Made by a program: the position numbers and the translations under genes. Below the pieces are notes generated by a model. The model searched no databases, was not told where the DNA came from, and saw only the letters and a program-made list of their open reading frames with translations. 64,000 bases of DNA from Escherichia phage phiP4. Shown in pieces: positions 1,949 to 34,367 of this stretch (position 1 is its first letter; each line of letters starts with the position of its first letter). Location of the stretch: sequence record PP993145.1. One strand, given 5' to 3'.

Positions 1949-4069
1949 TTACCTTATATGGATATACCCGTTTTGCAGGTCTATCTTCATTTTGTAAGAT
2001 CCCTCTGGATTAGAGGATAGTGCTGCTGCACGATCATATATAATATTTACACCAATTTGTGATAAGAAAGCATTATTAGCAACAATTTTACTAGCAGTTA
2101 CCGTACCATTAACTATCATATCACCATGTAAAACCATTGCAGGGCTAGCCCATGCTGAACCATTCCACTGCCTAGTAAACGCTGTTCCTGGTGCCCCACT
2201 TTTATACTCGGTTAATACATCATATTTAACAGGACCAGTACCAAAGTTAGATGTAAAAAACGAATTAGCCTGAGAATCATTCCATGCGGTTAAATTTGCA
2301 ATAGCAAGAGAATACATTCCGGGACCACGTTGTCCATCTGCTCCTGGCCGCCCATCAGCACCTGGTTTTCCATCAGCACCTGGTCTACCATCAGCACCTG
2401 GTCTACCATCAACACCTTCAGTACCACTCCATTGAACTACATCTGACCAACTGGTTCCAGATACTAATTGATTAGTAACAGGGTCCAGAGTACCAGTAGA
2501 GCAGTAAATATTCTGAGTATTAGATGTTCTATTCGGGGGAGTTTTAGACCAACCAGAAGGTGGATATGCAGGGCTTGTTGGTTTAGCAGGTAATGAAGTA
2601 TCTAGAATATAAATAAATACTGTTTGTTTACCTTGTATACCTGTCTCTATATCGATGTCACCGTTAGGTGTGCCAATTACAACCCCACTAGAGATTCTTA
2701 ATGTATCACCATCATAACGAATGTACTGTGTAGCGTTACCAATGTCCAATTTTGGCTTTGCAGTAGCATTATCCATGCCCATCCAAATACCAGATTTTGT
2801 ATCTCCCCAAGTTTTACCCTGAGTATATATTGCTGGATTATCTTGACCAGTCAAATTAGTCATGACAAAGTTCGCAGCATTAATGGTTTTAGTTATTACA
2901 CTTCCATCAACGTTAACTATCTTTTTAATAGGGTCAAAAGATATTGGTGCTTTTCCTTCGGCATCTAGAAGACCTATATTAATAGCACCGGTGGCAGCGT
3001 CTATTAAAAAGGTTTGTTTCCAGGTAGATCCATCTTTAATCTTACCCTTAATATACGCGTAATTTACCTCTATACCAGTTTCGTTAACAAAACTATTATC
3101 TAATGGTGTACTTTCGTTTAGTATAAAGGTCTGTACTGTAGAATCAGTAATACTTTGAGCATCTGGTCCCCAGGCAATAGATGACACTTTAAATTTATGC
3201 TCTACTTTCCATGGGAATGATATAATTGTTGCAGACTGAGCAGCCCCTACGTTGATTTTTTGTGCCTTAGTCCATCCAGTTCTAGCAAATTCTGCTGAAT
3301 CTATATAAGATAGAACGAACTCACGAACGTTAGCACCTGTACCCCTATTCCAATCCCATTGTACACGTAAATCATAACGTTCTTTACCATCAGCTATACG
3401 TGCAGCTTTAAATACAACATTAATAGGGGCTGTAGGAGGTACAAAGTTATATCTAACTTCAAAGACAGTAGGATACTCATAGTATCCAGATGAATCAATA
3501 GTTACTCCATCTGGTAGAGATATTTGTCCAGAAATTCTTACCTTATAGGATCCGATTGGCACACCACCAAACATAATAGTTGGCATCAACGCACCAACGT
3601 AATATTTAACCCACGGATTATTAGCATTAGAATTATTTTTTAATTCTATAGTACAATAATCAGCTTCTCCTGTAGTATCTATATAAACTATTGGCGCTCC
3701 AACACCTACGTCTACAGGCTCTGATTCACATCTAGCACCTGTAATTCTAGGTGCTGACTTCATTTTAAAAGTTTGTTTGTCAGATAGATTAATACCTATC
3801 TGAGCATTAAGTAGTTCAGAGTCTATTATAGAATCATAAAATGCACCCTGAACTTCATAAGTTGTTGTAGGTTTTAGGTTATTAATAGTTACAGAGAAGG
3901 TATCAACTCCAGTAAAATCTCTACGAGTAACGTTGCTACCTTCTTTAAGCCAAAAAGACCTGCCTATAACGTCATAATCAGAATAGATAGAATGCTGGAT
4001 ATACGCCAACGTATATCCAGTTAAGACGCTATTTAGGACCATTTTAGCTGGTGCATTATTTGAAATCAT
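1949..4069 (-). CDS. Central straight-fibre protein pb4-like (706 aa) with collagen-like segment
   Basis: Position directly downstream of pb3 and size close to T5 pb4 (~690 aa as I recall). Contains [30 protein letters not shown]. Confidence 0.75.
2320..2412 (-). repeat. Collagen-like G-X-Y repeat (about 10 triplets) encoded by 15-bp tandem units ccatcagcacctggt
   Basis: Four near-identical 15-bp units are seen on the plus strand. They translate to the GADG(R/K)P repeat. Confidence 0.8.
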
Positions 4070-6919
4070 TTAAATAGTAGCCCAACCAACAGATTGCTCA
4101 CCATTTTCCCCTTCTGCTCTAATCCTGAATCGTATTTTACGATTAATTCCTAAAGCACCAGAGTTTAATAGTGCAAAATCCGCCTTATTATATGTTAATA
4201 GATAGTCATAGGTATAGGCATCCTCTATCCTAATACTACGAAGCATTCTATCCTGAGAATCATGTATTTCTAGAGTATAATAAATTTCTGGAATTATTTC
4301 TTCTTCAGGTATTTTATCCCAAGCAAGTTTCACGTCCGGGCCCACAAATTCGGTTACATCTCCAGAAGCTGTATTAGTTACTCTGAAGTTACTAACTACA
4401 CTCAAGTTTCTAGCAGAGTTAAGATCCACGGAAAGAGTAACAGGAGAACTACGTCTACCGTTAATATCAACAGCACGTAATTCAAAAATAGCTAAACCAG
4501 CAGGCTCACCTATAATCTCCTGAACCATCCTTTCATTAGGATTATTCTCTAATTGCTGAATTATGTAAGGGTCTACATGACCTGAATGAGCTATAGAATA
4601 ATATACTACGTTATTAGTAAGACTAGGTAGCCAAGATAGTTCCCCATTTTTACCTATAGCACCTATCATACCGCCAGGAGTTGGTGTATACTTAAAGTCT
4701 CTAGGAGGAAGAACATTATTACTAATATCTGGAATATCATTACCACTATTATCTACTTGATCAGAGTTGATAAATACATCTTCACCATACTCTTGTAGTG
4801 TTAAATTAATCTTACCATCACGAGTATTTTCTACTTCATCTACTAAGAAGAACTTGTCTTTCCACCCATAACGCTCATAAGTAAAAGCAATCGGGTCATT
4901 TGGCTCTATACCAATAAATTTATATGGTACTGAGAAGCTAAGTGTACGTGAGTACCTGGACTTTTTAAGCTCTCTATCAGCGTAACTACGAGCGGTGTAG
5001 TAGTTAGTAATATTTGCAAAAGATAGCTGAAGTTTTTTATCCAAACCCTTATCTTGTTCTTTAAACTTAGAGTTATAGAATGTAATAGAGTTTGTTTTCC
5101 AACTTAGCGCAGGGTCTACTAGGGATGCTTGTACTGAGTTAAACTTATTTCTACCAGTAGTATCAGATAAGTCTAAGTCCCCATAAGTATCTAGAAAACT
5201 TATCTTCAAAGGAGTTGTAGAATGCTTCTCTACAGTTATTCTATACTCGCCAGATAAGTTATTTATAGCTCCGCCAAAAGAATCCAGTACTCCTTGAACA
5301 TTTTTAAATACTGATTCGGAGGTATCTAATATAGTATTTAACTGAACTACTTGGCGATGTTCAGAAATAGAATCACTCCAACCAACATATCTCCAATAGG
5401 GTTGCCAGCTAACCTGATAAGATTCATCAATTATATCTAGAATTTTTGCTTCTGATATAATCTTTTGTAGTGGGAACTGATCTAGAGTTATATTAGCTCC
5501 ATAACGTTCAGAGGTTAGATAGTCCATGAGCTGCCAGATACCATTAAGGCTGGTTTTATCTGCTTTAACAGACCCATCAGAGTTATATACTTTGACTTTC
5601 TTACCTTGTACTTCGGCACTAATTTCTGGAATTTCAGTTCTATTCTCGTTAATAGTAAATCTAACTACAGCATAGGCTGTGTCTAAGAGCTTATAACGAG
5701 AATCCCAGTATTCTGGACCGTTGCCATTTTGATTCTGTAAATAGAAACCTCTTCTTTTAGCAATATCTACTAGTACTTGAGCTGCTGTCTGGTCTGGTTT
5801 GCCATGAAAAGTCCATATTCTTATATCACCATTACCATCGTTATACTTGTACTCCTGGCCATGAACGGAGGGCTGAGAAGTACTTGTACCCGCAGCTAAT
5901 CTATGCATTGTATCGCCCACTAGTTTCTTACGGCCGAAGCAGGTTCTAGCATTGGAATCCGTTTCATCGAAACAGATCATTGGGCTATCACCAATATAGA
6001 AATCTAGAAATCCGTCAATTTCTCCTTCCGAAAACGCATAGACTACATACACTATATTAGGGTTATTTAGCTCAGTATCTGCAAAAATAGGGATACCAGG
6101 AATTTTCTGAACCCCATATACAACAGGTATGAATTTAGCAGCTAAGTTAAAGTCTAAATCAACTTCTTTAGTTACAGTCTCATAATACTTTTTAAGACTG
6201 TAACTTCTTGATAGCCCAAAAAGTTTCTTCTTGGACTGAAGTTTATAGCGTTCTTCTTTTACCTGATATTTAGCTAATATAGTAGTACTTTTATTAGAGT
6301 GGAAGAAACCATAGTCTTCTTGATATTCAGGACGTTTAGCACCATTTGAAGGCTGAAGAGTCCCATTAACAACTTCAAGACCTCGGTGAGAAGCATCATC
6401 AGTATAACGACCATTCACTCTATCAAAATCATAGAACTGGTTAGAACAGTTCCATGTTATAACAGAAGTTCCTATACCGGAAGTACTAACATTATCCTTT
6501 ATTCCTCCACCAGTAATTTTACCACGAAAGAATAGTAAAGGTCCATTAGTATCAGGATCTACAGGAAGAATATTACCTTCTTCATCAATTATAGCTTGAT
6601 GTATAGTGATAGTTCTATCTAAGAAAGATACTCCATTTTGAACTAGTTTTAATACTTCATCTTCTGCTGTACCAGTTATGGTAAAAGATAGGCTACCAAT
6701 AGATAGTTCACGGTTTTGTTTATGAGAGCCGATACTTTTTACTTTACCAGATCTATATAAGATTCCGTTATAAGTAACATCTCTAAAGTAGTCAGTTAAA
6801 TAAATATAAGTAGCAGCAGAGCCTGATGAACTAGGAAGCTCTAAAGCTATAAGACAAGCTGTTTTTAGCTTGTCATGAGTATTAAGATATGTTTTAGCAC
6901 TATCGAGTATCTGCTTCAT
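4070..6919 (-). CDS. Baseplate hub protein pb3-like (949 aa)
   Basis: Its 949 aa equals the length I recall for T5 pb3. Synteny is pb9-pb3-pb4, with an ATGA-type overlap with pb9. Confidence 0.85.
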   Translation of the reverse strand: MKQILDSAKTYLNTHDKLKTACLIALELPSSSGSAATYIYLTDYFRDVTYNGILYRSGKVKSIGSHKQNRELSIGSLSFTITGTAEDEVLKLVQNGVSFLDRTITIHQAIIDEEGNILPVDPDTNGPLLFFRGKITGGGIKDNVSTSGIGTSVITWNCSNQFYDFDRVNGRYTDDASHRGLEVVNGTLQPSNGAKRPEYQEDYGFFHSNKSTTILAKYQVKEERYKLQSKKKLFGLSRSYSLKKYYETVTKEVDLDFNLAAKFIPVVYGVQKIPGIPIFADTELNNPNIVYVVYAFSEGEIDGFLDFYIGDSPMICFDETDSNARTCFGRKKLVGDTMHRLAAGTSTSQPSVHGQEYKYNDGNGDIRIWTFHGKPDQTAAQVLVDIAKRRGFYLQNQNGNGPEYWDSRYKLLDTAYAVVRFTINENRTEIPEISAEVQGKKVKVYNSDGSVKADKTSLNGIWQLMDYLTSERYGANITLDQFPLQKIISEAKILDIIDESYQVSWQPYWRYVGWSDSISEHRQVVQLNTILDTSESVFKNVQGVLDSFGGAINNLSGEYRITVEKHSTTPLKISFLDTYGDLDLSDTTGRNKFNSVQASLVDPALSWKTNSITFYNSKFKEQDKGLDKKLQLSFANITNYYTARSYADRELKKSRYSRTLSFSVPYKFIGIEPNDPIAFTYERYGWKDKFFLVDEVENTRDGKINLTLQEYGEDVFINSDQVDNSGNDIPDISNNVLPPRDFKYTPTPGGMIGAIGKNGELSWLPSLTNNVVYYSIAHSGHVDPYIIQQLENNPNERMVQEIIGEPAGLAIFELRAVDINGRRSSPVTLSVDLNSARNLSVVSNFRVTNTASGDVTEFVGPDVKLAWDKIPEEEIIPEIYYTLEIHDSQDRMLRSIRIEDAYTYDYLLTYNKADFALLNSGALGINRKIRFRIRAEGENGEQSVGWATI

Positions 6920-26881: not shown

Positions 26882-28546
26882 TTACGCGAAAAATTTGCCG
26901 TTTTTAAAGTCAATCAAAGTGCGCTGCCCGTTCGCATAGGTAATTAAATGCGTTTGCGTCCAACTTGACGCGCCAACGTTGTAACCCATATCCAGACTAC
27001 CAGCAACGCCAGCGGTATAAACGCCGCCGTAAATGCTGGCGGTGTGGGTGTGCCCCGTGTTTAATTTGCCCAATTTCTTAAACTGCTTCGGATTACCACG
27101 GCTGCCGTTAATGCCGTTGTGACCGTGTACGCCGCATTCAATGCCTGCAATTTTAAATGATTGGTCAGTGGTCAGGAAAATTGCGTTAAACTCGCAACCT
27201 GCGACGTCACGCAGCGCATAATCCAGCACGTTGAAAGTATCGTCATGATTACCGATTGCCGCGTAAATCGCAGCATTAAGGCGGTGATATAGTTCCGCAT
27301 TGGCTGGATCGTCTTTAATGTTAGCATTGCGATCATCAAGCCAACGGGATAACGCCAAATCGTGGTTTGATTCGACAATGATCGTTTGACTAAAATCGCG
27401 CTCCATTGACTCCAGCACGCGCCCGGTATCGATCAGATCATCCAGAACTTTATCACGTCCGGCTGCATACTGTTTCGCTAGGAATACACCAGAGGCGCGA
27501 TTATGATGATTGCGCGATGTAAAATCATGCACGTCATGCACAAACTGATATTTAGGCTTGAGAATATCAAGCAAGCTGTTTTCGCCAGCCCATGACGCTG
27601 CGGCGCACTCCTCATCTAATTTCTCGGCGTGTACGTCGCCATATTGCAAGCCTAAAACATGCCCCGACGTTTCAAAACATCCGGCGGGAGTGGCGCAAAT
27701 ATTCAAATCGTAAAACATGCCGCTTTCGTCCATCGTTTCAAGCTGGCGAACAAAAAATTCCCCGTCCTCGTCGAACTCAACAATCAGCGCACCGTAATTA
27801 TGCAGCGCCTCCGCTTTTTGCCCTGCTTTTTGCTGAATGTAGTTTTTGAGCGTTGCCGTTCCGGTTGAGTACATGCGGCGTACTACTTCACCTTTGAGAG
27901 CTGGCACGCTTTCAGCGGTGATTTTAGCGTGACCAATTGCCAGACCTTCCAGATTAAGCGCGGTTGCAGTTTCAGCAAATCCAGATAGCGGATAATCTGC
28001 CGTTGGCAAAACATTAATTTCAGCCATGAAAGCAAAACGGCGATTGTTTAAAAACACGTTTTTGCTGCAAATATATTTATCAAACGCGGAATCATATTTT
28101 ACACCGTCTGCGCCTTCTCCGTTCTGAAAACCGTTTTTATTATAAATATACTTAGAAACAAGCAAATCAGCGCCGATAAATTTAGCATATTGTTCAAGCG
28201 AGGCTAAAAAGTTTTTATGCGGGAAAGTATTGTTCTGAATTGATGTAATAATAAAGCGTTTGCCCTGTTTTACTTCCCACTGTTCCACCGTGCTGGAAAT
28301 AATTCCAGCCGCCTCGGGGCGCTCGTCGTTTTTAATGGCTTTTGCTACTTTCGCCGCTTTTGGTTTTGCTGGTTTATTTGCTTCCAGCCAATCACAAATC
28401 GCGGTCGAGTGTTTCGTTGTATCGTAGACCGCTTTTGATATATCGTCGCAGACTTCCAGCTTAGTAGCGCGCAGACGTTTACCGTAGAAATTAAAGTCAG
28501 CGGCCAGCTTCAGGATAACGGTTTGTTTTTCTGCGGAAATAATCAT
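26882..28546 (-). CDS. A1: Pre-early protein A1-like, metallophosphoesterase-type (554 aa from SD-preceded ATG at 28546; ORF track start 28636)
   Basis: Calcineurin-like phosphoesterase motif series (GDVH, VHDVHDF, ESNHD, GVHGHNG, TGHTHT). Size is close to T5 A1 (556 aa as I recall), and it is adjacent to A2 and dmp. Confidence 0.75.
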   Translation of the reverse strand: MIISAEKQTVILKLAADFNFYGKRLRATKLEVCDDISKAVYDTTKHSTAICDWLEANKPAKPKAAKVAKAIKNDERPEAAGIISSTVEQWEVKQGKRFIITSIQNNTFPHKNFLASLEQYAKFIGADLLVSKYIYNKNGFQNGEGADGVKYDSAFDKYICSKNVFLNNRRFAFMAEINVLPTADYPLSGFAETATALNLEGLAIGHAKITAESVPALKGEVVRRMYSTGTATLKNYIQQKAGQKAEALHNYGALIVEFDEDGEFFVRQLETMDESGMFYDLNICATPAGCFETSGHVLGLQYGDVHAEKLDEECAAASWAGENSLLDILKPKYQFVHDVHDFTSRNHHNRASGVFLAKQYAAGRDKVLDDLIDTGRVLESMERDFSQTIIVESNHDLALSRWLDDRNANIKDDPANAELYHRLNAAIYAAIGNHDDTFNVLDYALRDVAGCEFNAIFLTTDQSFKIAGIECGVHGHNGINGSRGNPKQFKKLGKLNTGHTHTASIYGGVYTAGVAGSLDMGYNVGASSWTQTHLITYANGQRTLIDFKNGKFFA

Positions 28547-28635
28547 AATAATAAACTCCATTAAAGGGATAAGGTTAATAACGGCAATATTGCCAAATAT
28601 AACGCCTCCAATAATAGGCGTTATAATTTGCAACA

Positions 28636-28833
28636 TTAATTTAAAGGCATCAGGCTAGAACTAACACCACAAACAACGGCGGCAATAAAACAAATCAGGC
28701 CCAAACGCTTCGCTAACTTAGATTTGCGTTTAAAATAATACGAATCTAAATCATTTTGAAAATATGCGAACAATAACGAGGCCGCCATAATAAATAAGCC
28801 TAGAATCAACGATTCAGTAGGGTAAAAGATCAT
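28636..28833 (-). CDS. Small two-TM membrane protein (65 aa from SD-preceded ATG 28833)
   Basis: MIFYPTESLILGLFIMAASLLFAYF...LGLICFIAAVVCGVSS, preceded by an SD (ctggagttattaaaATG). Confidence 0.5.
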   Translation of the reverse strand: MIFYPTESLILGLFIMAASLLFAYFQNDLDSYYFKRKSKLAKRLGLICFIAAVVCGVSSSLMPLN

Positions 28834-28890
28834 TTTAATAACTCCAGTTAAAGGGAAATTATAGTGGGGAATAATCCCCACTATTTAAAT

Positions 28891-29298
28891 TTATTCACCT
28901 GCGGCCTGTTTTACTTCATCGGCAACGCCTAACAACTGCGCCACGGCGTCCAGCGTTTCCAGCTTCGCGCTTTCAAGGCTTGCCAGATCATCGGCGTCCT
29001 TGATAATGCCGGAATCAATAGCGTGTTTTGCAATCACTCGCACGTAATGAGCTTTGCGGATTGAACTACCGCCGCCAACTTTGCGCGGCTTATCGCTTTT
29101 TTGATATGCTTTCGCGCTGGTCAATTTTGAGCGAACTGACACGGGAGAAGCCGCGCCAACTGCTTTCGCAATCTCTTTCAGGCCGTCGCTATTTGCGAAA
29201 TCTAAACCGTTTTCATTGATTAACTGCTGATACATGGTAACAGCTTTTTGGGTGTTTTCTTCGTTCCAAGAAAATTTTGCGGTTTTTGCGTTAGTCAT
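28891..29298 (-). CDS. A2: Pre-early DNA-binding protein A2-like (135 aa)
   Basis: Its 135 aa equals T5 A2, and it lies immediately upstream of A1. Confidence 0.7.
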   Translation of the reverse strand: MTNAKTAKFSWNEENTQKAVTMYQQLINENGLDFANSDGLKEIAKAVGAASPVSVRSKLTSAKAYQKSDKPRKVGGGSSIRKAHYVRVIAKHAIDSGIIKDADDLASLESAKLETLDAVAQLLGVADEVKQAAGE

Positions 29299-29398
29299 GG
29301 TAAAAACTCCAATTAATTTAATTTAAGGGATTAAATGATTAACTAATGTTAATCGTTATATGCCCCGAACTACTGGGGCATATAAAGTTAACACTATA

Positions 29399-29650
29399 TT
29401 ATAAAACGGCTTCCCATTTTTCGTTACGTTGAACAACCTTTACAACGTCGCCGGATTTAACGCGAACGCTAAAAACGGTTTTTCCGTTGTTACTGCGCTC
29501 ATTTTCAGCGTATACCGCGTCGATTGTATCAAACGGCATAAGCGCCGCGCCTTTAATACGTTCGGCTTTTCCGGTTAATTCATCCGTTTTAGTAACGAAA
29601 GGAATAAAAACAGATTGACCAATTTTCGGCGCGGTAATAACGTTTTGCAT
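29399..29650 (-). CDS. Pre-early hypothetical protein (83 aa)
   Basis: ORF with an SD (aactggagtttatattATG), upstream of A2. Confidence 0.55.
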   Translation of the reverse strand: MQNVITAPKIGQSVFIPFVTKTDELTGKAERIKGAALMPFDTIDAVYAENERSNNGKTVFSVRVKSGDVVKVVQRNEKWEAVL

Positions 29651-29687
29651 AATATAAACTCCAGTTTATTTGATGGATTGTTCCGCA

Positions 29688-29715
29688 TTATCTGCTAGAA
29701 AATACTAGCAGATAA
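29688..29715. promoter_or_regulatory. Perfect 11-bp inverted repeat TTATCTGCTAG-aaaata-CTAGCAGATAA (operator-like) upstream of the leftward pre-early operon
   Basis: Palindrome read directly from the sequence. It overlaps a GATAAT -10-like hexamer on the minus strand. The TAGCAGA half-site recurs at 30636 and 30697. Confidence 0.55.
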
Positions 29716-29853
29716 TAAGAAGAAATCCGCTCGCCATTATAAAATCAATTTAAGGAACTCCACGCGGGCCGCTATATCCCAGTTAGGGGGCGGGATGCAT
29801 TATGGTAAGCACCGACCGTCAAATTGTATCAAGTTATCGCTCTTATCGAACTG

Positions 29854-29876
29854 GGTACATCTTAAAGCCTATCGGC
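29854..29876. repeat. Left copy of 23-bp inverted repeat (GGTACATCTTAAAGCCTATCGGC) flanking the 67-aa ORF
   Basis: Its reverse complement matches 30120..30142 at 22 of 23 positions. Confidence 0.85.
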
Positions 29877-29883
29877 TAGGTTG

Positions 29884-30087
29884 TCAAACTATTTTTTGCA
29901 GTTTTTTATGATTTTCCTTCAGGTCGATCATAATATTTCGCCAGATCATTTCTAGTCCTTGCTGGCGGCCTTTCTTGTACTGCTCAAATCGATATTTTAC
30001 CGATCTTTGCGCTACTGTCAATAAATTTTTTGTTTTGCTATCCAGTGCCTTGCTAGGTTTACCAGTGATCAATAAAGTTTGTTTCAT
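29884..30087 (-). CDS. Small basic protein (67 aa) bracketed by a 23-bp inverted repeat
   Basis: ORF MKQTLLITGKPSKALDSKTKNLLTVAQRSVKYRFEQYKKGRQQG..., Lys/Arg/Gln-rich. Function unknown. Confidence 0.45.
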   Translation of the reverse strand: MKQTLLITGKPSKALDSKTKNLLTVAQRSVKYRFEQYKKGRQQGLEMIWRNIMIDLKENHKKLQKIV

Positions 30088-30119
30088 ATCGTCGATTCCT
30101 TATAATGAATAAGTTTACC

Positions 30120-30142
30120 GCCGATAGGCTTTAAGATATACC
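30120..30142. repeat. Right copy of 23-bp inverted repeat flanking the 67-aa ORF
   Basis: GCCGATAGGCTTTAAGATATACC, with one mismatch to the reverse complement of 29854..29876. Confidence 0.85.
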
Positions 30143-30635
30143 CAATTTTTAAAGAGCGCGGCGGTAAACTCCCCGCCGTGTAGTTCGTCATTGCCGCCCT
30201 ACGAGATAAATAATAACAAACAACGAAAAAGGCGCAACCTTATATTTGTAAAGAAATGTAAAGACAAACGCCACCGGACACCGTGCGGCGACCTGGGCGC
30301 GGCGCATTAAAATTAAAAGAAACGGGCGCGCGAATACCACAAAACACAGCAGATAGGCAAGTAATTTTTTCATTTATATTTGCTTTGCCCTACTTGACAA
30401 AATCTAAAAAGCTCGTGGCAGCGATAAACGGCTTATCCCCTTATGATGGGATGGCTAAAAACTTTATTGCGTTCTGGGGCGTTTTAGGCCGCCTATTTTC
30501 GACTTAACAAATCATTAACAAACGCAAAATTGAAAAATAGTTGGAAAAGGTCTTGACTTTTAAAAATCAAGATCAAATGACTTATTTTATAAAATAAATT
30601 AATTGACTTTTATTTGTTAGTATGCATCGGAAAGA

Positions 30636-30714
30636 TAGCAGACTATTAATCACTAGAAGGATGATCATGCTGGTGGATTGTAACGGCCTGAATTATTAGC
30701 AGACTATTAATCAC
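30636..30714 (+). repeat. Two 18-bp direct repeats TAGCAGACTATTAATCAC (30636-30653 and 30697-30714)
   Basis: Identical 18-mers with starts 61 bp apart. They share the TAGCAGA core with the palindrome at 29688. Confidence 0.8.
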
Positions 30715-30776
30715 GGAAAAACTCATTAGCCAACTAACTATTTCATGATATATAATATACTTATAAATTAATGAGA

Positions 30777-30857
30777 AATAATAACTATAAGAAATCATCA
30801 CCATTATAATAATAACTATAAGAAATCATCACCATTATAATAATAACTATAAGAAAC
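30777..30857 (+). repeat. 31-bp tandem repeat AATAATAACTATAAGAAATCATCACCATTAT x about 2.6
   Basis: Two exact copies plus a 19-nt partial third copy, read directly. Confidence 0.85.
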
Positions 30858-30866
30858 TATCGGCAT

Positions 30867-30998
30867 AAGTGAGAACCACTATCATTTAAGTTATCCACAA
30901 TGTTATCCACAGCACAAAATAATTTGACACGATAGGCGGCGATATAAGGGCTTATCCACAGACTTATCCACAGGTTATCCTACTGTATAAATATACAG
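30867..30998. repeat. Left arm of large imperfect inverted repeat (pairs with 34010..34143)
   Basis: AAGTGAGAACCACT...TTATCCACA...TTGACA...CTTATCCACAGACTTATCCACAGGTTATCCTACTGTATAAATATACAG aligns along its whole length with the reverse complement of the right arm. Confidence 0.75.
30891..30983 (+). promoter_or_regulatory. DnaA-box cluster: 4 perfect TTATCCACA (30891, 30903, 30952, 30964) plus TTATCCTAC (30975)
   Basis: Exact matches to the 9-mer DnaA box consensus TTATCCACA, read directly. Confidence 0.8.
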
Positions 30999-31263
30999 GG
31001 TAAAAAGGCAGTGTTAACGACTGCAATCAATTTTAAGCGGCCTAAAACGCTTTCTAACGAGCTAAACGCTGTGGGGTAATATTAAAGTAAAGACCCAACG
31101 CGGTGCCCTGGTGGCTTCGCCGTGTTTTGCTCTTTACCGTACCGCTGCGCGGTTATCATAAAAATAGGCGTTAGGCAAGGAAAATAAAAAAGTAAAATAA
31201 TCTTTGCCTATGCTAGAAAATTACCCTTATCATTTACTCACCGATTAACGAGAGGGCCAACAA

Positions 31264-32256
31264 ATGAGGCTATATAAACCAGATAACGCAACCGTCTTAA
31301 AAGGTGCGCTGCGTAACCTGCTGGATGGTAGCAGAACAACCAGCATCCGGCATTTTGTTTTCAATATTGAAACTATTCATCAAAACTTTTTTGATGAATA
31401 TGACGCTTATAATATGAATAGTTTTCTACCGTTATATAAACAAGGGGCAACGCTTGTTTTGTATAATCAGGATTATCAATTGCTCACTAGTCGGGGGCCG
31501 GATACTGATTTCATAATCGTAAAAGGCAACACAGTAAAAGCCTATGATACTGGGGCGGGCTTAGAAGTTTTTTCAATAGAAAACTATGAGGCTAATGATA
31601 ATGATCTTTATGACGTAGAAAATTTTCTTGATTCATTTTGGCGTTATTTATCAGTTGGCTGGAATCGGTCGGATTCTGATGGGTATCGTTTTGCGGCTAT
31701 AATGGCCTTCGATGATAACGGTAATTTTTTGCTACCGTCGGAACTATGCCCGTATGTTTATAATGATCTGATACAGGAGGCCGGTTTTACTTTCTGGAAA
31801 GATGAGGATCAGATTATTAACAGTATAGAAAAACATGCTGTAAATTCTAACACTCAAAGCGTTATCACTCAAACTACTGAAAATAAAGGAAAAAACACTA
31901 TGACCAAGATCGCTAACATCGTTGCCGCCAATAAGTCTGCCGTTGTAAACGCTGCAAAACTGGAAGCGGGTAAAATTGCACTAACTCAAATCACGAAAGT
32001 AGCGGCTAAAAAAGCACCGTTCATGATCAAAGGTTATATCGATACGCCGATTGGTCGCGTAGTAATCGCTAACCTGCTGAGTGTAGCGGTTGACCAGTAC
32101 GCCCCGAGTAACCAGAAAGCGAAAGCGGTAGCGGGGGCGGCTATGGAAGCGGCAATGTTGGAAATGGTGCAAAGTTTTAACATCGCTGAGATGATCGATG
32201 AAATGGTAAAAGGTATCGATATTTCTACTTTTACCAATAACACCGAAAACGAGTAA
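31264..32256 (+). CDS. Hypothetical protein (330 aa), possibly two in-frame products (internal SD+ATG at 31900)
   Basis: Long ORF. The N-terminal ~210 aa are Asp/Asn/Phe/Tyr-rich, and the C-terminal ~118 aa are Ala/Lys-rich and amphipathic, preceded by AAGGAAAAAACACTATG. Confidence 0.6.
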   Translation: MRLYKPDNATVLKGALRNLLDGSRTTSIRHFVFNIETIHQNFFDEYDAYNMNSFLPLYKQGATLVLYNQDYQLLTSRGPDTDFIIVKGNTVKAYDTGAGLEVFSIENYEANDNDLYDVENFLDSFWRYLSVGWNRSDSDGYRFAAIMAFDDNGNFLLPSELCPYVYNDLIQEAGFTFWKDEDQIINSIEKHAVNSNTQSVITQTTENKGKNTMTKIANIVAANKSAVVNAAKLEAGKIALTQITKVAAKKAPFMIKGYIDTPIGRVVIANLLSVAVDQYAPSNQKAKAVAGAAMEAAMLEMVQSFNIAEMIDEMVKGIDISTFTNNTENE

Positions 32257-33751: not shown

Positions 33752-33790
33752 TAATCACGGGGCGCAACTATCAGGGAGTGCCCCCAATTT

Positions 33791-33813
33791 TCAAATGATA
33801 ATCATTCTCATTT
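33791..33813. promoter_or_regulatory. Fur-box-like palindrome TCAAATGATAATCATTCTCATTT
   Basis: TCAAATGATAATCATTCTC matches the 19-bp Fur consensus GATAATGATAATCATTATC at 15 of 19 positions (hand alignment). Confidence 0.5.
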
Positions 33814-34009
33814 GACCGCGCCCGCGATGGTTAGCCTGCTAATGGTTCGGGTGTTACGTGTCGCCTTGTGTGATCGTTAGCTCGCTAACTAATTTTCAAG
33901 CCTCCTCCAATTTTGCCCTTGTTTTAGTATCCCCACCAAAATTAAACGCGTTAGAATGCGTTTGAGAGCGTTTTAACGCTATATTAGAATTATTCGCTGC
34001 GTAGGAATA

Positions 34010-34143
34010 CTGTATATTTATCCAGTAGGATAAGCTGTGGATAAGTCTGTTAATAACGCCTCAAAATGGCTAGGGTTTTGTCAAGTCAAATCGTGCTGTT
34101 AATAAGTCTGTGGATAACTTAAATAACAGTGTTTCTCACTTCC
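34010..34143. repeat. Right arm of large imperfect inverted repeat (pairs with 30867..30998)
   Basis: Its reverse complement reads CAGACTTATCCACAGCTTATCCTACTGGATAAATATACAG...GAAGTGAGAAACACT..., colinear with the left arm. Confidence 0.75.
34025..34117 (-). promoter_or_regulatory. DnaA-box cluster on opposite strand: TGTGGATAA at 34036 and 34109, GTAGGATAA at 34025, degenerate TGTTAATAA at 34048 and 34097
   Basis: Two exact reverse complements of TTATCCACA plus three variants, mirroring the left arm. Confidence 0.75.
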
Positions 34144-34149
34144 GTTCTT

Positions 34150-34367
34150 AAATGAGAATCATTATCATTTGTATTTCACTATCTAACTAATAATCATTCC
34201 ACTATCTAACTAATAATCATTCCACTTTCTAAATGAGAATCATTCCGCTTTTTAAATGAGAATCATTTCACTTTTTAAATGAGATTGATTCTCATTTCAC
34301 TTTCTAAATGCGAATTATTATCATTCTCATTCCGCTTTTTAAATGAGAATGATTCTTATTATCATTC
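34150..34367. repeat. Degenerate ~23-bp tandem array (6 copies) of AAATGAGAATCATT(N)C(N)CTTTTT containing Fur-box-like palindromes
   Basis: Copies start at 34150, 34231, 34254, 34277, 34306 and 34341. The first (TTAAATGAGAATCATTATC) matches the Fur consensus at 15 of 19 positions. 34277-34297 is the palindrome AAATGAGA-TTGAT-TCTCATTT. Confidence 0.7.
34177..34222 (+). repeat. 23-bp exact tandem duplication CACTATCTAACTAATAATCATTC x2
   Basis: Read directly from the sequence. Confidence 0.85.

Follow-up and report, generated by a model that had tools for sequence, protein, structure and literature searches.

Several described RNA elements offer points of comparison for a long inverted repeat that brackets a small gene in Escherichia phage phiP4 (sequence record PP993145.1), of which a stretch of 64,000 nucleotides (nt), hereafter the window, was analysed. 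Escherichia coli RNase III needs roughly two helical turns of duplex. In ribosomal RNA (rRNA) operons the two strands of the 16S and 23S RNase III stems lie hundreds of nucleotides apart and pair around the unit over at least two helical turns, and the stalk is cut to free the unit from its polycistronic precursor. The phiP4 element likewise pairs distant strands around a unit over such a length, and would share the cutting as well under the mechanism that we propose; unlike the rRNA stems, it encloses a small protein-coding phage mRNA cassette, its 3' strand doubles as a putative promoter core, and it is known from predicted pairing. The early RNase III sites of phage T7 (R0.3, R0.5, R1, R1.1 and R1.3) divide an early polycistronic RNA, made by the host polymerase from strong phage promoters, into defined and stable mRNAs, and they resemble the phiP4 element in lying on early RNA and in having about 20–30 bp of duplex, often with an internal loop, to be compared with the 4x4 internal loop of the Tequintavirus form described here; the T7 sites, however, are local hairpins in intergenic spacers, whereas in phiP4 the strands lie 243 nt apart and a gene is enclosed. 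At lambda sib/int, both halves of an RNase III duplex are present only on read-through transcripts and the fate of the mRNA is set by where it starts, as we propose here, but sib is a local hairpin completed past a terminator and its cleavage destabilises int mRNA, whereas the discriminating element in phiP4 would be an upstream leader segment. Finally, the PeSLs of T4-like phages place a strong sigma-70 early promoter and an RNA stem at the flanks of small, variable, non-essential open reading frames (ORFs), in a plastic region where cargo differs between close relatives and flanks are conserved (PMC2839356, PMC4122927). The phiP4 locus likewise has an RNA stem, conserved flanks and small variable cargo, and has a candidate promoter at the cassette boundary (a conserved TTGACA-17-TAAGAT with an upstream A-tract, over the 3' arm). 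A PeSL is a compact local stem-loop terminator beside its promoter and recurs as direct repeats many times per genome, whereas here the stem is long-range, the promoter lies within one strand, there are one or two such elements per genome, and no terminator is predicted. None of these four systems joins a long-range stem around a coding cassette with a promoter in one of its strands.

The window corresponds to the first-step-transfer (terminal-repeat, pre-early) region of a T5-like phage. A preliminary description of this DNA had pointed to a 23-bp inverted repeat, matching at 22 of 23 positions, around a 67-amino-acid (aa) ORF, and the repeat is present as described: the 23-nt sequence GGTACATCTTAAAGCCTATCGGC at 29854–29876 is repeated in reverse complement, with one mismatch, at 30120–30142, leaving spacers of 7 nt (29877–29883) and 32 nt (30088–30119) to the ORF. 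This 23-nt arm occurs exactly twice in the window at up to three mismatches and has no matches in 100 shuffles. The complementarity extends further than the 23 bp first noted, as the full arms span 39 nt (29838–29876 and 30120–30158) and are 85% complementary. On the minus-strand RNA they are predicted to form 28 contiguous pairs (30147–30120 with 29849–29876), two of which are G.U, followed by the 4x4 internal loop and then seven further pairs (30158–30152 with 29838–29844). Read on the minus-strand RNA, the one mismatch within the 23-nt core becomes a U.G wobble; on the plus strand it would be C.A. With 28 contiguous plus seven pairs the helix is long enough for RNase III by the usual measure of about two helical turns (~20–22 bp or more). 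Its parts are as follows.

30120–30158, minus strand: 5' arm in the sense of the RNA (inner 28 nt, 30120–30147; internal-loop side, 30148–30151; outer 7 nt, 30152–30158)
29838–29876, minus strand: 3' arm (inner 28 nt, 29849–29876; internal-loop side, 29845–29848; outer 7 nt, 29838–29844)
30145–30158, minus strand: leader motif CGCTCTTTAAAAAT, which forms the outer part of the 5' arm
30159–30178, minus strand: local GC hairpin in the leader, directly 5' of the helix, CGGCGG (30159–30164) with CCGCCG (30173–30178), 6 bp with an 8-nt loop
29884–30087, minus strand: hdi (T5.008 homologue, 67 aa), the cargo of the helix, with a Shine–Dalgarno sequence AAGGA at 30097–30101

The proposal that the minus-strand transcript would form a helix around the whole cistron is borne out by each type of prediction used. 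Folding of 30200–29820 gives the helix in both the minimum free energy and the centroid structure (z = -7.6), all 35 of its pairs have probabilities of about 0.84–1.0 in the ensemble of a 404-nt transcript, and it is recovered independently from relatives by RNAalifold and shows covariation (see below). The GC-rich hairpin reported just outside the repeat also forms, with a pair probability of about 0.99. A competing 12-bp helix (30112–30123 with 30159–30170) was considered and set aside, having an equilibrium probability of about 0 and being only partly conserved; it may have a kinetic role. The suggestion that the helix acts as a translational trap fares poorly, since the Shine–Dalgarno sequence (30097–30101) and the AUG lie in the loop, 19–32 nt from the helix, in a stretch most of which is predicted to be 0.4–0.9 unpaired. 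Elsewhere in the pre-early region of the window there are no comparable gene-enclosing repeats, only a weak 71% pair around T5.007, the repeats of the injection-stop-signal (iss) region and local hairpins. A permissive scan of 28500–31500 with Rfam 15 found no matching family; its only two hits, below threshold and attributable to chance, fell elsewhere in that interval.

A 1.2-kb query around the repeat matches 497 phage records, the best being Salmonella and Escherichia tequintaviruses at 95% identity. Relatives were gathered through a neighbouring gene or through a flanking pattern outside the arms, and there was therefore no selection for intact arms. The sample comprises 37 IMG/VR loci, 13 metagenomic contigs and GenBank phage records that include a spread across the identity range; a second IMG/VR scan, using the flanking pattern, gave the same ~28 genomes as the first. 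The bracket is present in all of the T5-type relative loci examined (59/59, of which fp01 alone departs from the standard register) and in each of the 11 informative metagenomic loci. Helices of 24–40 bp are formed in the T5-type relatives, and across relatives in general the arm strands lie 217–636 nt apart. Not one empty site was found among about 70 relative loci. The preliminary description had taken presence in an identical context in all relatives as something that would tell against its proposal; the bracket does occupy the same site in all those examined. Presence throughout argues against mobility and not against function.

In an alignment of the 28 distinct arm pairs, 97.6% of the cells are standard pairs, and 10 pairs have substitutions in both arms. 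For each of five measures the observed value lies beyond all 500 column shuffles, and pairing falls to 37–45% in slid registers. RNAalifold, applied to full-length units with no structure supplied, recovers the same helix. Length changes are informative as well: phiR2-01 has matched 1-nt insertions and fp01 has one additional nucleotide in each (A opposite T), with Sen-E22 carrying one extra base in the 3' arm only. Because MAFFT set the indels of Shiner and My1 out of register, both rows count against the structure in these covariation figures and were assessed separately by duplex energies. The helix is thermodynamically dominant and is conserved with compensatory changes and matched insertions and deletions.

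The same arms enclose different genes in different phages (hdi alone, ORF-X with hdi, ORF-Y alone, ORF-Y with hdi, or a 5'-truncated hdi), a variability beyond what the preliminary description had recorded. ORF-X (52 aa, phrog_21018) lies upstream of hdi at five of the loci, and ORF-Y (56–74 aa, no PHROG match) is present at four. Phages of the DT57C type have a 56-aa ORF-Y and no hdi, and SelmaRatti has the 5'-truncated hdi. Since the cargo differs between phages, the bracket is not specific to hdi. At every locus the cargo ORFs are in the transcript sense, and the suggestion of an invertible segment is not borne out.

In other Demerecviridae the helix is re-created with unrelated sequence. 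The arms of the Klebsiella sugarlandviruses differ from those of T5 at no fewer than 10 positions and yet form 26 pairs, around an ORF-Y-like gene and an Hdi homologue. Pectobacterium phage My1, of another subfamily, has two successive brackets of about 26 and 34 bp, one around My1_014 and the other around an Hdi homologue and My1_012. In Proteus phage Stubb a perfect 19-nt repeat plus six pairs, with no sequence relation to the other arms, encloses the two genes that lie upstream of A2. Every lineage, the T5 type included, has 19–40 uninterrupted pairs, and about 25–40 in total. Strong pairing is confined to an arm and its own partner: cognate duplexes have energies of -37 to -49 kcal/mol as compared with -6 to -25 kcal/mol for cross-lineage combinations. 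The inverted repeats of Vibrio phage D308 were excluded as support, as they lie among DnaA boxes in an iss-like region. This segment of D308 (2727–3520) contains three copies of CCTGTAAGCCATTCTAAGC, one of them inverted, among DnaA boxes and GTTGGCACG repeats upstream of A2, and the small ORFs annotated within it are doubtful.

The departures from Watson–Crick pairing bear on whether the constraint acts on RNA or on DNA. At 11 pair positions of the T5 group (39 cells) they are G.U when read in the transcript sense, several of these being fixed across whole genera, and the reverse case, A.C in the sense strand and hence G.U on the other, occurs at four positions, each in one sequence; the sense duplex is more stable than the antisense duplex in seven of ten lineages. 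These observations moderately favour an RNA helix on the pre-early transcript over a constraint at the DNA level. The arm asymmetries are long-lived, which would not be expected if gene conversion homogenised the arms or if they were a pair of identical protein sites.

The enclosed gene, not named in the preliminary description, was identified together with the other genes of the window by alignment with T5 and Spc35. It occupies the locus of T5.008 and is collinear with it, with a handful of differences between the two 67-aa proteins, and the ORF matches phrog_4718 with E = 2e-40. Variation by codon position among relatives is 19/12/35 for hdi and 10/11/41 for T5.007, which serve as coding controls. 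By sequence the ORF is a homologue of T5.008/Hdi, and homology predicts the activity of this allele. T5.008 is Hdi, which blocks FtsZ ring formation and cell division and confers a competitive advantage on T5 (PMC10714956); the paper describing it makes no mention of the repeat.

The arms also overlap, or lie close to, a series of predicted transcription signals, two of which, the P-H22 homologue within hdi and the promoter-like site over the 3' arm, likewise go beyond the preliminary description. These, the leader and the genes downstream are listed here.

30210–30237, minus strand: candidate upstream promoter of the hdi unit, TTGCGC (30237–30232), 16 nt, TATTAT (30215–30210)
30088–30203, minus strand: probable non-coding leader of the hdi unit, including the doubtful T5.009 ORF
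29994–30021, minus strand: homologue of the strong, classical T5 promoter P-H22, inside hdi, TTGACA-16-TAAAAT, 11/12 match (annotated in T5 at 4799–4873)
29859–29887, minus strand: predicted sigma-70 promoter-like site over the 3' arm, -35 TTGACA (29887–29882), 17-nt spacer, -10 TAAGAT (29864–29859)
29399–29650, minus strand: T5.007, by alignment with T5 and Spc35
28891–29298, minus strand: A2, by the same alignment
26882–28636, minus strand: A1, by the same alignment

The promoter-like site over the 3' arm has a predicted start near 29852, and its -35 hexamer overlaps the hdi stop codon, just inside the loop. TTGACA-17-TAAGAT is found in both the window and T5, where it is the second-best minus-strand site after P-H22, and the site is kept as TTGACA-17-TATTAT in Shiner, TTGACA-17-TATGAT in My1 and TTGACA-17-TATAAT in Stubb. 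In every lineage the 3' arm overlaps a sigma-70 promoter-like site, usually with an A-tract upstream of the -35. Transcripts from P-H22 contain the 3' arm and lack the 5' arm. As to its counterpart in the T5 annotation, the RefSeq interval of P-D/E 20 (4338–4664) contains no promoter-like site on the transcribed strand, and TTGACA-17-TAAGAT (T5 4690–4718) is unannotated and lies just upstream of that interval; the P-D/E 20 annotation may be offset, with the 3'-arm site as a possible counterpart of this classical promoter.

Upstream of hdi, the -10 and the TTGC of the -35 of the candidate promoter are invariant in 29 relatives and retained in Shiner, and the site scored below the threshold of the promoter scan. 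Counted from this TTGCGC-16-TATTAT, the 5' arm probably occupies about +45 to +83 of the leader; the equivalent arm of Stubb lies about 35 nt downstream of TTGACA-16-GATAAT. The leader itself is unlikely to encode protein. T5.009 (30084–30191; 35 aa as annotated) is frameshifted or truncated (16–56 aa) in many relatives, lacks its start in three of four Epseptimavirus-type sequences and has no PHROG match, and the 61-aa ORF at 30188–30373 (phrog_17446 in relatives) varies equally at its three codon positions (34/35/33); both are probably non-coding leader and promoter sequence. With T5.009 not conserved as a protein, pairing with the 3' arm is the sole evident constraint on the 5' arm. For the same reason we rejected T5.009 as a coupled upstream ORF whose translation melts the 5' arm. 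Unlike the 3' arm, the 5' arm carries no promoter-like site on either strand; its role as an antisense promoter was rejected, as inspection of the window and Stubb found no suitably spaced -35 on the other strand. No intrinsic terminator is predicted between the units, and neither arm has a G+C-rich stem with a U-tract directly behind it; in the window the 3' arm is followed by CAGUUCGAUAAGAGCG.

The motif CGCTCTTTAA(A/C)AAT stands directly before every 5' arm (30145–30158 in the window). In Stubb it recurs about 15–35 nt downstream of several strong pre-early promoters, including that of the divergent unit (L102, at 2863–2880, 3037–3051, 3742–3755 and 3828–3841, with the reverse complement at 2446–2460); it was also noted in the relatives L079 and L097. 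The Sugarlandvirus and many Epseptimavirus genomes have a direct copy after the 3' arm as well. The motif could be an operator, or else a leader element that pre-early RNAs share.

Since the helix is conserved with covariation, a role at the level of RNA is the best reading, and enterobacterial RNase III is expected to act on a duplex of 25–40 bp. Processing or stabilisation of the RNase III type, suggested in the preliminary description, is plausible, and we give an even chance to the fuller proposal that the bracket is a double-stranded RNA element that forms an RNase III processing or stabilising boundary of an accessory-gene unit. In this model the 5' strand would lie in the leader of the hdi unit, and the 3' strand would be the next promoter copied into RNA, from its spacer through the -10 to the start region. 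Both strands would be present only on RNA begun upstream of the leader and continued past the 3'-arm promoter, with transcripts from P-H22 or from the 3'-arm promoter carrying one strand or none. On read-through RNA the accessory cassette would be closed into a loop by about 28 + 7 pairs, and host RNase III would cut the helix and separate the cassette mRNA from the downstream T5.007–A2–A1 message. The released cassette mRNA would keep paired, nuclease-resistant ends, and the downstream RNA would be left with a 5' end near the internal promoter's own start. The helix would then act as a boundary, at the level of RNA, between tandem pre-early units that have no intrinsic terminator between them, and as a by-product the conserved flanks would permit exchange of cargo by recombination.

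Several observations weigh against this proposal. The 3' arm is also under a probable promoter constraint, so part of the arm conservation is at the DNA level. The strand polarity is moderate, with a binomial test on positions giving p of about 0.03–0.06, and DT57C and My1 bracket 2 have sense A.C mismatches and pair better in the antisense strand. The hdi stop codon is 7 nt from the helix, such that terminating ribosomes would melt its inner end, and a loop of 217–636 nt would close slowly and could lose out in vivo to translation or to local structures. A local hairpin would suffice as an RNase III site, which leaves the enclosure of a gene and the overlap with a promoter unexplained. No T5 transcript-end or rnc-dependence data were found in the searchable literature. 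More tentatively, and with rather less confidence than in the boundary itself, we suggest a general arrangement for the Demerecviridae in which a segment of each unit's leader is the complement of the next promoter's core (spacer, -10 and start site). A promoter-complement stalk with a duplex of about 25–40 bp, cut or read by the host at the unit boundary, might take the place of terminators, the processed RNA might mimic the transcript of the internal promoter, and the units might serve as swappable host-takeover cassettes.

If the helix forms without being an RNase III site, it could act through pausing or termination at the next promoter (relieving occlusion), as a passive block to exonucleases or RNase E, or by closing a loop that sets the stop codon beside the start codon and so favours re-initiation on the cassette. 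Such roles share all of the helix evidence and draw on the lack of an intrinsic terminator between the units, the position of the helix ends 7 nt after the hdi stop and 32 nt before its start codon, and the U-rich motif GCUCUUUAAAAAUUU that follows the 3' arm by 10–15 nt in several lineages. That motif is too distant for canonical intrinsic termination and in the window is replaced by complementary sequence, an uninterrupted duplex of 19–40 bp is unlikely on established knowledge to escape RNase III in enterobacteria, and we know of no citable bacterial precedent for closed-loop re-initiation; we judge these roles rather unlikely. Alternatively the arms could be inverted operators for a dimeric or looping DNA-binding protein (A2, an A1-dependent shut-off factor or a host factor), with looping repressing the pre-early promoters. 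The overlap of the 3' arm with a conserved promoter-like site, the position of the arms on either side of P-H22 and the A1-dependence of pre-early shut-off (T5 annotation) all fit this, a protein co-evolving with its two sites could also produce matched changes in the arms, and sense RNA is not favoured in DT57C or My1 bracket 2. However, there are stable genus-wide asymmetries involving sense G.U (pair 38-70 is G.U in 11 distinct arm versions), which are neutral for RNA yet break the identity of two DNA sites. The arm spacing of 217–636 nt does not conserve helical phase, the arms are unrelated between genera although A2 is conserved, and the matched single-base insertions of fp01 keep a pairing register that a protein site does not need. 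For these reasons operators seem to us unlikely.

Two further explanations turn on recombination. The arms could be linkers, in the manner of PeSL boundaries, whose flanks are kept for exchange of accessory genes during co-infection and whose symmetry is secondary. The varied cargo between identical arms and, in some lineages, the direct copies of the leader motif GCTCTTTAAAAATTTGG on both sides are as expected of linkers, and T4-like phages are known to shuffle ORFs through cassettes of promoter and stem-loop (PMC2839356, PMC4122927). Homologous exchange, however, requires conserved flanks and not mutual complementarity, so that the compensatory substitutions, the matched indels and the unrelated complementary arms of four lineages are left unexplained, and recombination between inverted arms would flip the cargo, which is never seen. 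As a separate function this seems unlikely, and a linker role would more naturally follow from flanks conserved for their function than compete with it. The other explanation, raised in the preliminary description, is mobile or rearranging DNA, in the form of a miniature inverted-repeat element or of a stretch flipped by a site-specific recombinase. Terminal inverted repeats do flank a short segment, and some relatives have a direct repeat outside the arms, but that repeat lies 10–15 nt from the 3' arm, is missing in the window (which has an inverted outer sequence instead) and recurs elsewhere as the leader motif downstream of promoters. The arms are present in only two copies in the window, no copy of the unit occurs in 5,426 complete E. 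coli genomes, neither an empty site nor an inverted orientation occurs in the roughly 70 loci, no target-site duplication abutting the arms was found in the window or its relatives, and the segment carries a functional gene and promoters. We consider mobility of this kind extremely improbable.

Other repeats and hairpins were noted in the same region of the window. A hairpin at 29675–29728, in the leader between the 3'-arm promoter and T5.007, has 24-nt arms and an internal loop, with compensatory changes in its upper stem between T5 and Spc35 (ATCTGC/GCAGAT vs ACCTGC/GCAGGT), and its shape is reminiscent of T7 RNase III sites. Between A2 and a small membrane-protein gene, a perfect 10-bp hairpin at 28861–28884 (ATAGTGGGGA / TCCCCACTAT) with T-runs on both strands constitutes a bidirectional terminator-like site within the leftward operon. 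The divergent pre-early control region (30777–30869, 30891–30973, 30564–30615) has a 31-nt repeat in three tandem copies, DnaA-box-like TTATCCACA units repeated 61 nt apart, and an AT-rich palindrome of 30 nt. The dense direct and inverted repeats of the AATGAGAATCATT type at 33787–34366 correspond to the injection-stop-signal region of T5, and there is a like cluster in My1 (L101, 12185–12339).

No published description of the bracket was found in the searchable literature, in which the arm sequence had 0 matches in full texts, and no paper on T5 transcript starts or on RNase III in T5 was found there; the iss repeats are the only ones treated in the Davison two-step-injection preprint and in the BF23 paper. 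The structure is well supported by the pairing and its covariation, and the function that we assign to it is plausible.

T5 is a classic model phage, whose pre-early genes, carried on the first 8% of the genome, are expressed before the remainder has entered the cell. To our knowledge the regulation of these genes is still poorly understood, and the bracket is among the most strongly constrained non-coding features of the pre-early region. Should it prove to be an RNase III boundary, T5 would gain its first defined RNA-processing signal, the origin of discrete pre-early mRNAs without terminators would be explained, and a promoter inside a processing stem would be a natural insulator design for synthetic operons. 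The bracket also marks the slot in which T5-like phages swap small anti-host genes, and ORF-X and ORF-Y are uncharacterised candidates there.

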